A DNA stretch of 64,000 nucleotides, taken from positions 301,973-365,972 of the forward strand of contig JAYRRP010000003.1 in assembly GCA_041910055.1 (NCBI GenBank), given 5' to 3'. Within the stretch, counting starts at the first letter, position 1; every line of letters starts with the position of its first letter. Below are positions 48,530 to 52,516 of this stretch, piece after piece. Origin of the DNA: Candidatus Saccharimonadales bacterium. GTDB taxonomy: Bacteria; Patescibacteriota; Saccharimonadia; Saccharimonadales; JAYRRP01. The translations under genes and the position numbers were made by a program. The notes below the pieces were generated by a model. The model saw only the letters and a list, made by a program, of their open reading frames with translations, did not search any database and was not told the origin of the DNA.

Positions 48530-48554
48530 GGTTATTGATTGAAGTAGCTGGGTG

Positions 48555-48773
48555 CTACTTGCTTTTCTGTGCGGGCGTAGTAGAGCTCAGGAGGTTCTTT
48601 TTCTTGAGGGTGCGCAAAGCTTGGGTGCTGACTTTCATCCGCACTTTTTGGCCATCAATAGTGAGGGTCTTCATCTGTAAATTTGGCTTCCAAACTTTTT
48701 TGGTATGGCGCTGCGAAAAACTGACATTATGGCCATACTGCTTTCCTTTGCCGGTGAGTTCACATCGTTGCAT
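48555..48773 (-). CDS. rpmB: 50S ribosomal protein L28
   Basis: MQRCELTGKGKQYGHNVSFSQRHTKKVWKPNLQ.... Confidence 0.92.
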   Translation of the reverse strand: MQRCELTGKGKQYGHNVSFSQRHTKKVWKPNLQMKTLTIDGQKVRMKVSTQALRTLKKKNLLSSTTPAQKSK

Positions 48774-48886
48774 TAGAGGTTTTCCTTTAGATTCAAGGTG
48801 TAATTTTACCCGATAATCTATTAGAGGTCAATCACCTTAGAGAGAATTTATCTCGAGGATATAGGGACTGCTATACTACTTGAGGT

Positions 48887-49516
48887 ATGCTACTTGATTT
48901 ACGGCCCGGTGACTTACTGATAGTTTTTATCACGATACTCCTATCTATGGCTATCCATGAGGCAATGCACGCTTTTGTTGCCCATTCTCTAGGGGATACT
49001 ACTGCCCGCGAAGAAGGCAGACTTACTTTAAACCCCCTGAAACATGTCGATCTCTATACCACGGTACTGTTGCCAATTGTGCTGATATTGTTGAGATTGC
49101 CACCGTTTTTTGTTGCAAAACCAGTGCCTTTCAATCCTACGCGTGTGCGCTATGGAGAATTTGGTGCAGCTTTGATTGGTATCGCTGGACCGCTGACCAA
49201 CTTAGCTTTAGCTGCTTTTGCAGCTGCTATTGTGAGGGTAGGTGGGATTGCGGTTGGGACCAGCACGTACAACATCTTTAGCATTTTCATTCTTATTAAC
49301 CTGGCATTTTTTGCTTTTAATATGATCCCGTTTCCGCCGCTGGATGGTTCACGCTTGCTTTATGCGTTTGCACCGGAACCATTGCAACGGATAATGCTTC
49401 AAATTGAATCAGCCGGCTTCCTGACCATAATCATATTCATGCTGATACTATTTCCCTTTGGCGCTCCCTTACTCAGTAACACGATTGAAATTTTATATAG
49501 ATTTTTGCTGGGATAA
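48887..49516 (+). CDS. Site-2 protease family (peptidase M50) membrane metalloprotease
   Basis: HEAMHAF (HExxH) in TM1, NLAFFAFNMIPFPPLDGSRL (the NxxPxxxLDG motif), multi-TM. Confidence 0.8.
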   Translation: MLLDLRPGDLLIVFITILLSMAIHEAMHAFVAHSLGDTTAREEGRLTLNPLKHVDLYTTVLLPIVLILLRLPPFFVAKPVPFNPTRVRYGEFGAALIGIAGPLTNLALAAFAAAIVRVGGIAVGTSTYNIFSIFILINLAFFAFNMIPFPPLDGSRLLYAFAPEPLQRIMLQIESAGFLTIIIFMLILFPFGAPLLSNTIEILYRFLLG

Positions 49517-49757
49517 CGGTAGATTTAGGGCGTATAATAATTAGTGGCTGGAACACACCAACGCCATGATTATCTGAATGATTAACAAAAGGGAGTCCAA
49601 TATTTTTAGCAGCTGAGGCTGCTATGTGAGGACACCCATCTGCCTTTGGCAGATTAATCATGTTGGTAATCCAGCTGCTAAGGCACTCTTTACGGAGTGC
49701 CTTTTTAAAGGCCGTTCTAAAAATCTCATCTTAATCTTTGGTATAGTAAAGAAGTTC

Positions 49758-49981
49758 CGGGGTGTGGCGCAGTTGGCTAGCGCGCATTACCCCATAAGAA
49801 CTTTAAAAACGACAGGGTGTAGCTTAGTTGGTAAAGCGCTGGGCTGGGGGTCCAGAGAGCGGAGGTTCAAGTCCTCTCACCCTGACCAAAGTTCTTATGG
49901 GGACCCCGTTTACGGCTGGGGGCCGTGAGGTCGCAGGTTAGCTCCGCGCGAAGCCGGAGCGCTGTCCTGTCACCCCGACCA
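49758..49981 (+). ncRNA. Interrupted tRNA-Pro(GGG)-like gene hosting a complete tRNA-Pro
   Basis: 5' CGGGGTG-TG-GCGC-AGTTGGCTA-GCGC-G (acceptor + D arm), then a 126-nt insert. After it come the anticodon arm TACGG-CTGGGGG-CCGTG, variable AGGTC, and T stem GCAGG/CCTGT enclosing TTAG + a 21-nt insert + TGT. The 3' end is CACCCCG-A-CCA, complementary to the 5' acceptor. A TGgTATAGT promoter sits at 49738-49746. Confidence 0.6.
49813..49888 (+). tRNA. tRNA-Pro (anticodon GGG), CCA encoded, nested in 49758..49981
   Basis: CAGGGTG acceptor, D arm GCTT-AGTTGGTA-AAGC, anticodon arm CTGGG-CTGGGGG-TCCAG, T arm GGAGG-TTCAAGT-CCTCT. 76 nt. Bracketed by the 15-bp inverted repeat ccccataagaacttt (49790-49804) / aaagttcttatgggg (49888-49902). 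Confidence 0.88.
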
Positions 49982-50067
49982 ATTTATATTTGACGAACAC
50001 TCAAGTGCTGATCCATTCCATGATGCCTCTGCTTTGAATTGCTGAGAATTCTTTATACACTAAACAA

Positions 50068-51213
50068 ATGGAACAGCCGCTGGTTCGAGAACATATCCAG
50101 GACGTGAATATTGAGCTTGGCGATGATGTCTCACGTATGCTCTATGAGGCTTCAAAGTTAACGCACGCCAATAGGCCAGGGCTTTTAGTAGAGTTTCATG
50201 AGTCATTCTCTGGGTTTCGGGCTATACCAGGTACGATGCTCAAAGATATTGGCAATTTGTATATGAACTTGGCTTTTGACGGAGTAGGTACAAAAGTTGA
50301 AGTGGCCGAACGTCTTGATGATCATTCAACGGTAGCTCATGATTTATTCGCGATGGTCTGTGATGATGCGGTTGTCCGGGGCGCAGAACCAGTTGCCATT
50401 GGGTCAATCCTTGACGTCAGGCAGTTGAATGACACGTCGCATACCCGCGAGGCTATCCAGCAACTCGCGCATGGCTATGTAGAGGCCGCAAAAGCTGCCG
50501 GTGTGGTTGTGGTCAATGGCGAAGTTGCAGAACTGGGCGATCGCGTCGGCGGGTATGGTGATTTTAACTATAACTGGGGTGCGACTGTGTTGTGGCTGGC
50601 TCACAAAGAACGAATTCTGACTGGCCATCAGATACAACCAGGAGATGTGCTCGTGGGTCTGGCAGAGCATGGTTTCCGGTCTAATGGTGTCACGGACGTT
50701 AGGAAGGCTATGGTCGAGCACTATGGTCCTCAGTGGCAGAACGAGGTAGTAGATAATCTTGGAAAGCTCTCCTTGGGACGTTTAGTGCAAAAACCATCTA
50801 TCATTTATTCACGTTTCGTGTCAGATCTGACAGGCGGTTACGATATTGAAAAAGAAGTAAAAGCAAAAGTCACTGGTGTTGCTCATATAACGGGCGGCGG
50901 ACAGCCTAGTAAGTTAAGGCGCATGCTCGAACCGTCAGGTCTCGGGGTAACCATAGATGATCCGATAGCACCTCCTCAGATTATGTTAGAAGTACAAAGA
51001 CTGAGAGGGTTCACTGATGAAAAAGCTTATGGAAAGTGGCACATGGGGCCTGGTATGGTTATCGCTACCCCTGAGCCAGAGAATGTATTGAACGAAGCAG
51101 AAACCCATGGGATCACTGCAAAAGAGATAGGCGCAGTAACTGATGCGCCAGAAATAAAAATCCGCAATCAAGGTGCTCAGCAACAGGAGGAATGGCTAAC
51201 CTTCCCTCAGTGA
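50068..51213 (+). CDS. purM: AIR synthase (PurM)-family protein
   Basis: FDGVGTKVEVAERL..., HDLFAMVCDDAVVRGAEPVAI, NGEVAEL, and HITGGG are collinear with PurM. No other pur genes lie nearby. Confidence 0.7.
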   Translation: MEQPLVREHIQDVNIELGDDVSRMLYEASKLTHANRPGLLVEFHESFSGFRAIPGTMLKDIGNLYMNLAFDGVGTKVEVAERLDDHSTVAHDLFAMVCDDAVVRGAEPVAIGSILDVRQLNDTSHTREAIQQLAHGYVEAAKAAGVVVVNGEVAELGDRVGGYGDFNYNWGATVLWLAHKERILTGHQIQPGDVLVGLAEHGFRSNGVTDVRKAMVEHYGPQWQNEVVDNLGKLSLGRLVQKPSIIYSRFVSDLTGGYDIEKEVKAKVTGVAHITGGGQPSKLRRMLEPSGLGVTIDDPIAPPQIMLEVQRLRGFTDEKAYGKWHMGPGMVIATPEPENVLNEAETHGITAKEIGAVTDAPEIKIRNQGAQQQEEWLTFPQ

Positions 51214-52106: not shown

Positions 52107-52483
52107 GCCAGATTGTTGGCTGGCCGCCCTATGTTTCGGCGTAGGGAGGAAAGTCCGGGCAGCATAGGGAGAGGCAGTTGCTAACGGCAACCGGAGGAAA
52201 CTCCAGGGAAAGTGCCACAGAAACTAAACCGCCCTTCATTTGAGGGGCAAGGGTGAAAAGAGCGGGGTAAGAGCCCGCAGTTATGTGCGGTGACGTACGT
52301 AAGAGGTAAACCCTGTCTGCTGCAAGGAGATCGGCCCGTTAGTGACCTTAAGGTTGCGGTTTCCCGCCAGGGCTGGTCATATATCCGCTCGATCCAGATG
52401 GTGACATTTGGACAAGATAGATGGTCAGCGCGTTTTCGTACTTGTACGAGAGCAAACAGAACCCGGCTTATAGATTTTCTGGC
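52107..52483 (+). ncRNA. rnpB: RNase P RNA (bacterial type A)
   Basis: GGAGGAAAGTCCGGGC (P4 5' strand), GGTAAGAGCCC, ACAGAACCCGGCTTA (P4 3' strand), and P1 pairing gccaga/tctggc. TATAAT at 52095-52100. Confidence 0.92.
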
Positions 52484-52484
52484 A

Positions 52485-52516
52485 TAAAAAACCACCGAAG
52501 TCTTCGGTGGTTTTTG
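52485..52516. terminator. Bidirectional rho-independent terminator (rnpB / rplT)
   Basis: aaaaa-accaccgaag-t-cttcggtggt-ttttt. Confidence 0.85.

Follow-up and report, generated by a model that had tools for sequence, protein, structure and literature searches.

A tRNA-Pro(GGG) gene nested in an isoacceptor gene of a Saccharibacteria genome: a probable tRNA gene replacement caught midway

Organization of the locus

The locus described here lies in a 64-kb stretch (64,000 nucleotides, referred to as the window) of the genome of a Saccharibacteria (Patescibacteria/CPR) bacterium, and 124 related loci were used for comparison. It comprises an outer tRNA-Pro(GGG) sequence (type A) that is interrupted twice, a complete inner tRNA-Pro(GGG) gene (type B) within the first interruption, a 15-bp inverted repeat and an extended -10 box upstream. 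This anatomy had been outlined in an earlier description made from the letters of the window (the sequence-only reading), whose quoted strings and coordinates were all confirmed, the sole mismatch being the spacing of the promoter, which is 10 nt to the outer 5' end and not about 12 nt. A search of related genomes, which had also been proposed there, recovered the nested layout in two further Saccharibacteria genomes, L104 (GCA_041906525.1) and L001 (GCA_041906765.1). The features of the window are as follows.

49739 to 49747, plus strand: predicted extended -10 box TGGTATAGT of the original outer gene, likely the promoter of the whole unit
49758 to 49784, plus strand: outer type A nt 1-26 (acceptor 5' strand, D arm, G26), matching intact relatives; now probably the 5' leader of the inner tRNA
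49785 to 49910, plus strand: 126-nt insertion between outer nt 26 and 27 (CATTA, left repeat arm, 8-nt spacer, inner tRNA, right arm, ACCCCGTT)
49790 to 49804, plus strand: left arm CCCCATAAGAACTTT of the perfect 15-bp inverted repeat, conserved in L104 and L001
49813 to 49888, plus strand: inner type B tRNA-Pro(GGG), 76 nt, CCA encoded, called by ARAGORN and Rfam; judged a functional gene
49888 to 49902, plus strand: right arm AAAGTTCTTATGGGG of the inverted repeat, its first A being the last A of the inner CCA; intact in L104
49911 to 49939, plus strand: outer type A nt 27-55 (TACGG-CTGGGGG-CCGTG, variable loop AGGTC, T-stem 5' strand GCAGG, TT)
49940 to 49963, plus strand: T-loop lesion, 24 nt (AGCTCCGCGCGAAGCCGGAGCGCT) replacing CAA (nt 56-58), as compared with TTCAAGT of intact relatives
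49964 to 49981, plus strand: outer type A 3' end (T-loop GT, T-stem CCTGT, acceptor CACCCCG, A73, CCA); now probably part of the trailer
52108 to 52486: RNase P RNA gene, class A

The outer sequence has its 5' acceptor strand CGGGGTG at 49758-49764, its anticodon arm TACGGCTGGGGGCCGTG at 49911-49927 and its 3' end CACCCCGACCA at 49971-49981. The 126-nt block is a clean insertion, the removal of which gives GCGCG|TACGG exactly as in intact relatives; the excision leaves no duplicated bases, i.e., no target-site duplication. It holds no gene but the tRNA, and the only direct repeats seen arise from the homology between the two tRNAs. The second block had been described as a 21-nt insert (49942-49962); it is present at these coordinates, but it is not a clean insertion, as CAA is replaced by 24 nt (net +21). 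The T loop of intact relatives reads TTCAAGT in almost all cases and TTCAATT in L103. A hairpin (GCTCCG/CGGAGC, 49941-49960) within the lesion forms in the minimum free energy (MFE) fold; it was considered as a repeated element and rejected, being unique within the window.

With both inserts removed, the outer sequence equals, apart from the T loop, the intact tRNA-Pro(GGG) that at least 12 relatives carry at this slot, and outside the two lesions the window shows zero substitutions relative to intact type A, with all stems intact. The two excisions as originally proposed yield a 77-nt tRNA-Pro(GGG) in ARAGORN (default settings), so that the predicted cloverleaf is indeed recovered, but the residual T loop (TTAGTGT) is without C56 and A58; the excised outer sequence is thus a cloverleaf, not a normal tRNA. 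In the native sequence the outer tRNA was called neither by ARAGORN (default, -i or -ps) nor by Rfam, both of which reported the inner gene only.

The inner tRNA-Pro(GGG) at 49813-49888 was called by both programs, with 66.4 bits against RF00005 (gathering score 29); at the gathering score Rfam found only this tRNA and the class A RNase P RNA, and relaxed scans added nothing relevant. The ten neighboring proteins that were scanned comprise neither a splicing endonuclease nor an RNA ligase. Features of tRNA-Pro are G35 G36, G37, A73, the pair C1-G72 and a canonical T loop. The ARAGORN drawing of the inner tRNA shows the loop CTGGGGG, the pair C1-G72, A73 and the T loop TTCAAGT. The inner type B gene is judged to be functional from its score, from its full conservation in the three nested genomes and because type B is the sole tRNA found at this slot in L087 and L095 (see below). 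A phage origin of type B was considered and dismissed, the best cultured-phage tRNA-Pro matches reaching at most 79% identity. One IMG/VR phage tRNA-Pro(TGG) shares the first 27 nt, which is suggestive and no evidence of origin.

Ahead of the outer gene, the motif TGNTATAGT is retained by the window, L104 and L001 alike, although the leader around it diverged. A consensus scan returned no -35/-10 pair, and inspection by eye of the 28 nt that separate the inner tRNA from the outer 5' fragment showed no convincing -10 box; stand-alone type B genes have a -10 box of their own 8-19 nt upstream. The kept motif and the lack of a convincing internal box (by eye) make a single transcript for both parts, as supposed by the sequence-only reading, plausible.

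The inverted repeat is perfect and the longest of the region; the chance of a perfect 15-mer pair within about 230 nt is estimated to be of the order of 1e-5. Its arms sit 5 and 8 nt inside the ends of the insert. No further copies were detected in the 64-kb window with up to 3 mismatches (3-mismatch hits being at chance level) or, using BLAST, among the 124 related loci outside the nested locus. The right arm of L001 is reduced to AAAGT, with 10 of the 15 nt missing, which leaves a helix of 5 bp as compared with 15 bp in the window and L104.

The locus in related genomes

The junctions of the 126-nt insertion are the same in L104 and L001 as in the window, and the inner tRNA is identical in all 76 positions. 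An assembly chimera at the repeated tRNA segment, which the sequence-only reading had named as a risk, is very unlikely: several Logan contigs do end inside the 27-nt segment common to tRNA-Pro genes, but the layout is common to three different metagenome-assembled genomes (MAGs), with lineage-specific differences, and contig L120 (SRR14932692) crosses the junction between the outer 5' fragment and the inner gene in an L001-type genome. In addition, contig L124 (SRR26835473), an independent read assembly from the window's own sample, covers the whole structure with a sequence identical to the window and overlaps contig L121 across leader-specific bases. The junction sequences of the nested layout are GCGCGCATTACCCC and GGGGACCCCGTTTACGG.

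The slot follows a gene for a site-2-protease-like protein and a conserved small RNA, and the intact type A of the relatives mentioned above identifies the outer sequence as the native tRNA-Pro(GGG) of the lineage. Informative relatives came via this upstream protease-like gene; synteny via the downstream AIR-synthase-like gene worked for L001 and L104 only, because that gene moves around. In L087 and L095 no tRNA other than type B was found at the slot (75 of 76 nt identical to the inner tRNA), and in L090 type B lies 2 kb away; in these three genomes it is without the inverted repeat and its flanks are unrelated. In the tree of the protease-like protein the holders of type B are scattered among those of type A, and the nearest outgroups of the nested clade (L108 and L112) have type A. 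Broken tRNA copies with an intact one alongside also occur for type A (L108-L111), for type B (L090) and for tRNA-Glu (L045); in L108 and L090 the 3' end of the relic is gone.

The outer gene differs in its state among the three nested genomes. Nucleotides 1-26 are unchanged in all of them and match those of intact type A genes in relatives; a tRNA-Pro(CGG) gene in L002 also has its first 27 nt, together with its last 11 nt, in common with the outer gene. The last 18 nt of the outer gene are likewise identical in the window, L104 and L001 despite divergent flanks on both sides. Within nt 27-54 the window has no substitutions, as compared with five substitutions in L104 and three changes in L001, an asymmetry that is mildly unexpected under equal rates (p about 0.02-0.08, a rough estimate). 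In L104 the change of TACGG to GACAG breaks the pairs 27-43 and 30-40, that of GCAGG to GGAGG breaks the pair 50-64, and the variable loop is altered; L001 has a 1-nt deletion in the anticodon loop and two substitutions. No compensatory changes were seen for the outer-stem changes of either genome. Between the window and L001, 1 of 55 nt differs across the outer 5' fragment, the left repeat arm and the spacer, whereas the adjoining small-RNA region, itself constrained, shows only 83% identity. The window and its nested sisters are co-occurring populations with signs of recombination (97% identity upstream versus 79.5% downstream). The outer acceptor 3' strand pairs with 49758-49764 in a 7-bp helix in the MFE folds of all three, and the fold of the window has z = -2.9 relative to shuffles.

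At the very spot of the T-loop lesion of the window, the T loops of L104 and L001 carry a structured element of 87-88 nt (element E). It belongs to a family in which exactly two nucleotides are replaced in tRNA loops, with sites that include 37/38 and the T loop. In the window, covariance model R1 of the element gave no match (best 8.9 bits, E = 1.4). The 24-nt insert of the window starts with TTAG and E with TGAG at the same spot, so the former is possibly a deletion derivative of E. In viral contigs, three pattern scans for E yielded nothing beyond chance hits within coding DNA. A mirror-image integration, in which E would be the end of an integrative element with the 5' half of the tRNA as cargo, was rejected because the relics in L108 and L090 retain 8 tRNA nt immediately 3' of E. 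Tentatively, and with odds clearly below even, E in the sisters may represent a small, structured and as yet undescribed mobile element with tRNA loops as its insertion sites, where it replaces exactly two nucleotides, the nested gene then being the host's rescue. As a lead, the E family may outlast the nested gene itself in interest. Sites 37/38 and the T loop are where a survey of group I introns reports no bacterial case (PMC13011429).

Probable replacement of the tRNA gene and competing explanations

The reading preferred here, to which a probability of roughly 0.75 is assigned on the basis of sequence comparison, is that of a tRNA gene replacement caught midway, in which the promoter of the relic drives the inner tRNA and ordinary processing releases it. 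The native type A gene has been broken twice, by the 126-nt insertion with a complete type B gene and by the T-loop lesion, and would have ceased to yield tRNA, mature type A being presumably absent. Its extended -10 promoter (49739-49747) would still fire, with the transcript passing through the outer 5' fragment into the inner gene; in line with general pre-tRNA processing, RNase P would cleave the inner tRNA at C1, and trimming from the 3' side would stop at the encoded CCA. The outer pieces would serve as leader and trailer only, and drift. The nesting itself probably reflects selection rather than targeting: given that the insert has no convincing -10 box (by eye), a copy landing behind the promoter of a dispensable or dead isoacceptor gene would have been expressed at once. 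The inverted repeat would have arisen incidentally, with the insertion or through template switching afterwards, and would not be a required processing signal, being dispensable as judged from the loss of 10 nt of the right arm in L001. What counts against this reading is that the relic of the window itself is free of substitutions, that both ends of the outer gene are unchanged in all three genomes, and that the outer 5' fragment, left arm and spacer differ so little between the window and L001. Among the options of the sequence-only reading, the comparative data thus favor its decaying pseudogene and, from another option, the core idea of a replacement tRNA brought by an insert into the gene of its own isoacceptor.

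That latter option had been labelled MITE-like, which is taken here to mean a transposase-mobilized miniature element with 15-bp terminal inverted repeats and a tRNA-Pro(GGG) cargo that targets its own isoacceptor gene. A perfect repeat that brackets the inner tRNA, a small non-coding insert and its location inside an isoacceptor gene would agree with this label, which nevertheless appears quite unlikely: a target-site duplication is absent, the arms sit 5 and 8 nt short of the insert ends, other arm copies were found neither in the window (beyond the chance-level hits) nor among the related loci, type B occurs in L087, L090 and L095 with unrelated flanks, and one arm is truncated in L001. The same truncation speaks against a conserved RNase III processing stem, another earlier option, as the helix of 15 bp in the window and L104 is not conserved in L001.

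The outer gene is most likely a decaying relic and not a new kind of spliced bacterial tRNA. For the window genome specifically, it could be argued that the outer tRNA is still functional: once RNase P and 3' processing have released the inner tRNA, the outer halves would be joined, or would stay annealed via the acceptor helix and the 14-15-bp stem to form a two-piece tRNA-Pro, a bacterial counterpart of archaeal split tRNAs in which a whole tRNA takes the part of the "intron"; the intact stems without any substitution, the cloverleaf recovered after two excisions and the complementary sequences on both sides of the first insert are what this would predict. Use of the outer halves at the RNA level would be a first for bacteria, and the present evidence makes it very unlikely. 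The T loop is without C56 and A58 and holds a hairpin, the stem is truncated in L001, and the product would duplicate the anticodon of the inner tRNA. Inspection of the sequence revealed no bulge-helix-bulge, defined as two 3-nt bulges with 4 bp between them (PMC4033280), at either junction of the 126-nt block; with the repeat stem taken as the intron helix, the central 4-nt strands ATTA and CCGT are non-complementary, and the 3' cut would have to be made at 49910|49911, which is not where the bulge lies. No group I core was detected (no Intron_gpI match at E<=10 in 49400-50100, none at E<=1 in L001 and L090), whereas bacterial tRNA introns are described as self-splicing and almost all located in the anticodon loop (PMC13011429, PMC4033280). 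The new split, nested or spliced architecture raised by the sequence-only reading is not supported by the sister copies, in which the anticodon- and T-stem breaks are uncompensated, an outcome that this reading had itself named as refuting, and the anticodon-loop deletion of L001 changes the frame.

It has also to be considered whether the outer gene, though dead as a tRNA, was exapted as a scaffold, its ends being kept since the acceptor helix closes the precursor and guides or protects the processing of the inner tRNA (and of E where present), with the 15-bp stem adding closure in some lineages, in the manner of rRNA-operon processing stems or a tRNA scaffold. Selection on the outer acceptor helix could account for ends (nt 1-26 and the last 18 nt, with both acceptor strands) that stay identical in three genomes while leader, middle and downstream flank diverge, and the 7-bp helix in all three MFE folds and the z-score of the window fit the same idea. 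The comparison comprises three sequences only, from co-occurring populations with signs of recombination, and the conserved ends are largely common to paralogous tRNA-Pro genes; gene conversion with such paralogs would therefore be an alternative that explains them equally well. Truncation of the 15-bp stem in L001, the missing 3' ends of the L108 and L090 relics and the existence of stand-alone type B genes, which need no scaffold, further make an exapted scaffold unlikely.

If the replacement reading holds, the locus offers a rare snapshot of a bacterium swapping a tRNA gene for one with the same anticodon: the replacement is lodged in the old gene, apparently borrowing its promoter, while the old halves decay around it. 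For annotation this means that halves resembling a tRNA on either side of a real one can be relics and not exons, and for the reduced genomes of Patescibacteria that a single tRNA slot can act as a hotspot where genes are disrupted and replaced.

Comparison with known systems

Literature searches on bacterial tRNA genes that are nested or have been replaced brought up no relevant paper and no nested case. [quoted passage not shown] The present locus resembles them in the phylum and in that intervening sequences in tRNA genes are missed by standard tools (PMC13011429). Group I introns differ in having a ribozyme core and an anticodon-loop site, whereas the inserts described here (126 and 24 nt) are located at nt 26/27 and in the T loop and match no group I model. 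With the split, multi-intron and permuted tRNAs of Archaea the locus has in common the non-canonical positions of the interruptions and the complementary sequences flanking an insert, but those tRNAs are processed at bulge-helix-bulge motifs (PMC4033280), which are absent here from the 126-nt junctions, and the interrupted gene decays in the sisters. Moreover, the host is a bacterium (RNase P of class A; Saccharibacteria).

Intervening sequences in bacterial 23S rRNA replace the loop of a helix and are cut out by RNase III without re-ligation. The T-loop lesion is similar in that it puts an extended hairpin into a hairpin loop (24 nt here, E in the sisters), and dissimilar in that its host is a tRNA relic, which in the sisters does not stay intact, and that excision is not implied. 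Polycistronic tRNA precursors of bacteria are resolved by RNase P and 3' trimming, which would be the most likely route for the release of the inner tRNA; the difference is that the inner tRNA has the two halves of a dead tRNA as its neighbors in place of genes.

Integrative elements in tRNA genes carry a copy of the tRNA segment that they displace, and Williams reportedly assigned the att sites of phages and islands in 2002 to the anticodon loop, the T loop or the 3' end of the tRNA gene. The likeness lies in foreign DNA within a tRNA gene, in an insert whose sequence keeps the function, and in a second lesion at the T loop, a classical sublocation. The 126-nt insert differs in that it has no integrase, supplies a whole tRNA of a different type and not a 3' segment, sits at nt 26/27 and is not accompanied by a direct repeat of a tRNA segment.

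Duplication, horizontal acquisition, pseudogenization and isoacceptor replacement are known modes of tRNA gene turnover in bacteria. The locus agrees with such turnover in that one isoacceptor dies and a gene with the same anticodon takes over, the two types being patchily distributed among relatives; it departs from it in that the replacement is located inside the body of the gene that it replaces, apparently on the promoter of the latter, so that an intermediate stage is visible.

Structure of the nested tRNA-Pro locus and its host

An inner tRNA-Pro(GGG) gene lies within an interrupted outer one (49758-49981), and the features listed by the sequence-only reading were all found in the window where it had placed them, except that the promoter box, which is present, lies 10 nt rather than about 12 nt from the outer 5' end.

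Features of the nested locus in the window, as read from the sequence
49739-49747 (+), extended -10 box TGGTATAGT
49758-49764 (+), outer 5' acceptor strand CGGGGTG, opposite CACCCCG-A-CCA at 49971-49981
directly after the 5' acceptor strand (+), canonical outer D arm
49790-49804 / 49888-49902, perfect 15-bp inverted repeat, the longest of the region
49813-49888, inner tRNA-Pro(GGG)
49911-49927 (+), outer anticodon arm TACGG-CTGGGGG-CCGTG

The inner gene was called as an intact tRNA by ARAGORN and by the Rfam tRNA model (66.4 bits), and neither called any other tRNA at the locus in the native sequence. After excision of both inserts, ARAGORN (default settings) calls a 77-nt tRNA-Pro(GGG), as had been predicted, but the cloverleaf is not the normal one expected, its residual T loop being TTAGTGT. 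Removal of 49785-49910 restores GCGCG-TACGG exactly as in the intact genes of relatives (type A, see below), and the 126-nt block is thus inserted cleanly between nt 26 and 27; comparison of its junctions with those relatives revealed no target duplication. In the outer T loop, TTCAAGT has become TT, 24 nt and GT, with loss of CAA, including C56 and A58. The predicted minimum free energy fold of 49754-49985 (-101.7 kcal/mol, z = -2.9 versus shuffles) contains the 15-bp stem and the T-loop hairpin as well as the outer acceptor helix.

The neighbouring genes (thrS, miaA, site-2-protease-like, AIR-synthase-like, RNase P RNA class A and infC), together with related loci in Saccharibacteria MAGs, assign the window to Saccharibacteria. 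Two sister MAGs share its nested layout, L001 (GCA_041906765.1; neighbouring proteins 56-94% identical to those of the window) and L104 (GCA_041906525.1; protease-like protein 99% identical). Among contigs from the independent Logan read assemblies, L124, from the window's own sample, covers the whole structure and is identical to the window, and L120 crosses the junction of outer 5' fragment and inner gene in its L001 form; other contigs end within 27 nt common to the outer gene and other tRNA-Pro genes, an ordinary repeat break. The sister genomes and these two contigs counter the possibility, raised earlier, of a chimeric assembly: the nested locus is real DNA.

The protease-like gene is separated from the tRNA-Pro slot by a conserved structured small RNA gene (window 49543-49673, +), which has its own TATAAT (49533-49538) and a terminator-like hairpin (49680-49706). 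Each of the 23 non-redundant relatives examined has this gene; for an alignment of 19 of them RNAalifold predicts 25 pairs, of which 13 show compensatory changes. Rfam gave no match for it at E<=10. Some relatives have no terminator here, and the tRNA comes immediately after the small RNA. The RNase P RNA measures 577 nt in L001 (L001:6043-6619), which carries two more insertions, about 25 and about 172 nt long, versus 379 nt in the window (52108-52486). The neighbourhood of the AIR-synthase-like gene (50068-51213, +) is conserved in L001 and L104 only, and its best relatives after Saccharibacteria are from DPANN archaea (50-56% amino-acid identity), which suggests a mobile or horizontally exchanged gene. 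L001 carries between the nested locus and this gene an additional 211-aa ORF (L001:3265-3900, +), absent from the window, whose N-terminus is prepilin-like by eye (MKKISKNGAGFSIIEILLIV...). A 72-aa ORF (window 48555-48773, -) is the counterpart of the ribosomal protein L28 gene (PF00830) of relatives, and the overlapping 93-aa plus-strand ORF (48535-48816) is probably spurious.

Two tRNA-Pro(GGG) types and element E

Relatives of the protease-like gene have, downstream of it and the small RNA gene, a single intact tRNA-Pro(GGG) of one of two sequence types. Type A, CGGGGTGTGGCGCAGTTGG(C)TAGCGCG[T/C]ACGGCTGGGGGCCGTGAGGTCGCAGGTTCAAGTCCTGTCACCCCGACCA, is present in at least 12 loci and equals the outer gene of the window; type B, CAGGGTGTAGCTTAGTTGGTAAAGCGC...CACCCTGACCA, is present in L087, L095 and L090 and matches the inner gene but for 1-3 differences. 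A rough neighbour-joining tree of the protease-like protein, taken as host tree, scatters the holders of type B among those of type A, and the nearest outgroups of the nested clade hold type A, so type A is regarded as native at the slot and type B as the incomer. A phage contig with a tRNA cluster (L117, IMG/VR UViG_3300001199_000012) encodes a tRNA-Pro(TGG) at L117:823-896 (- strand), the first 27 nt of which are identical to the inner gene; the tRNA-Pro genes of cultured phages are at most 79% identical to it.

At the T-loop spot both sister genomes carry an 87-88-nt element with three hairpins (element E, TGAG...GTGAC). A covariance model built from three copies finds more copies elsewhere.

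Copies of element E
L001:2983-3070, T loop of tRNA-Pro(GGG)
L104:2618-2704, T loop of tRNA-Pro(GGG)
L110:2182-2297 (same in L108), position 37/38 of a broken type A gene, followed by intact type A (L108-L111)
L090:5728-5899 (-), position 37/38 of a broken type B gene, followed by intact type B
L045:7351-7436 (-), D loop of a tRNA-Glu(CTC) fragment, followed by intact tRNA-Glu

The copies span 86-172 nt, and each substitutes for exactly two tRNA nucleotides. Three of the four contexts also have, 60-130 nt further downstream, an intact gene for the same tRNA that possesses a -10 box of its own. The first hairpin is paired in 6/6 modules, with three compensatory pairs, and the middle hairpin is exchanged between close relatives. 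Element E belongs to no Rfam family and has no match in IMG/VR. The model does not detect it in the window; the 24-nt insert there occupies the same spot and starts TTAG where element E starts TGAG, and may be a deletion remnant of it. Broken-plus-intact tRNA pairs thus recur around element E (L108-L111, L090, L045), and the window holds one version. The nearest type A relatives have additional, degenerate tRNA-like 5' pieces (L108:3175-3852, same in L110 and L111; L112:3127-3397), right behind the promoter CCGTATAATGTT and upstream of the E-broken copy, and dead tRNA-Pro genes of several generations seem to accumulate at the slot.

Fate of the outer gene and probable expression of the inner one

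In a three-way alignment of the window, L104 and L001, the 131 nt comprising outer 5' fragment, left repeat arm, spacer and inner gene are identical in the window and L104, with 1 difference in L001. The right repeat arm downstream of the inner gene lacks 10 of its 15 nt in L001, and the inverted repeat is therefore not required. In L104, outer nt 27-54 carry five substitutions, with pairs 27-43, 30-40 and 50-64 broken; the outer gene of L001 carries two substitutions and, in the anticodon loop, a 1-nt deletion. The alignment shows no compensation for any of these changes. A functional outer tRNA is thus contradicted by the kind of evidence that the sequence-only reading had itself named against it, and the outer gene is, from these comparisons, decaying in the sisters.

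The broken outer gene of the window has no substitution outside its two lesions, versus 5 in L104 and 3 in L001, and none of the three genomes shows a change in outer nt 1-26 or in the last 18 nt, the divergence lying in the middle segment and flanks. Between the window (49517-50067) and L104 (L104:2205-2811) identity is 97% upstream of the tRNA locus and 79.5% downstream, and the promoter-proximal leader is unalignable; run SRR26835457 yields both L104-type and L001-type contigs. The drop in identity points to a recombination breakpoint at this locus, with co-occurring strains recombining. The conserved outer ends could result from gene conversion with paralogous tRNA-Pro genes, which have those same ends, or could be kept by selection, the outer acceptor helix acting as a processing scaffold. 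Since the window's copy is unsubstituted and the ends are conserved, some weight stays on a functional role of the ends, to which a small probability is given.

The outer gene is broken, and the inner one is a canonical tRNA that is conserved. All three nested genomes keep the extended -10 box that precedes the outer gene, and no convincing -10 box was seen by eye in the 28 nt between outer fragment and inner gene; stand-alone type B genes have their own 8-19 nt upstream. Transcription would start near 49754 and continue through the outer 5' fragment; RNase P would free the inner tRNA at its 5' side, and trimming would take its 3' side back to the encoded CCA, the outer pieces serving as leader and trailer. 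The nesting would be an outcome of selection, because a tRNA fragment that lacks a promoter can be expressed only where it lands in dispensable DNA behind an active one, and a dying isoacceptor gene would offer just such a place.

Three known systems come close, namely integrative elements that interrupt a tRNA gene and restore it, archaeal split and multi-intron tRNAs, and patescibacterial group I tRNA introns; the hallmarks of each were looked for at the nested locus and were not found. The junctions of the 126-nt block allow no bulge-helix-bulge motif (as defined in PMC4033280), and group I intron models gave no match at the locus. A survey of bacterial tRNA introns lists group I introns in the anticodon loop only (PMC13011429). 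On present evidence the locus does not represent a new way of expressing tRNAs; as a curiosity it is clean and reproducible, it is useful for annotation, and the leads that it opens are element E and the hotspot behaviour of the tRNA-Pro slot. Bacterial tRNA gene turnover is likewise among the closest known phenomena, and the nested locus is best classed with tRNA gene replacement, as a variant in which the intermediate is preserved.
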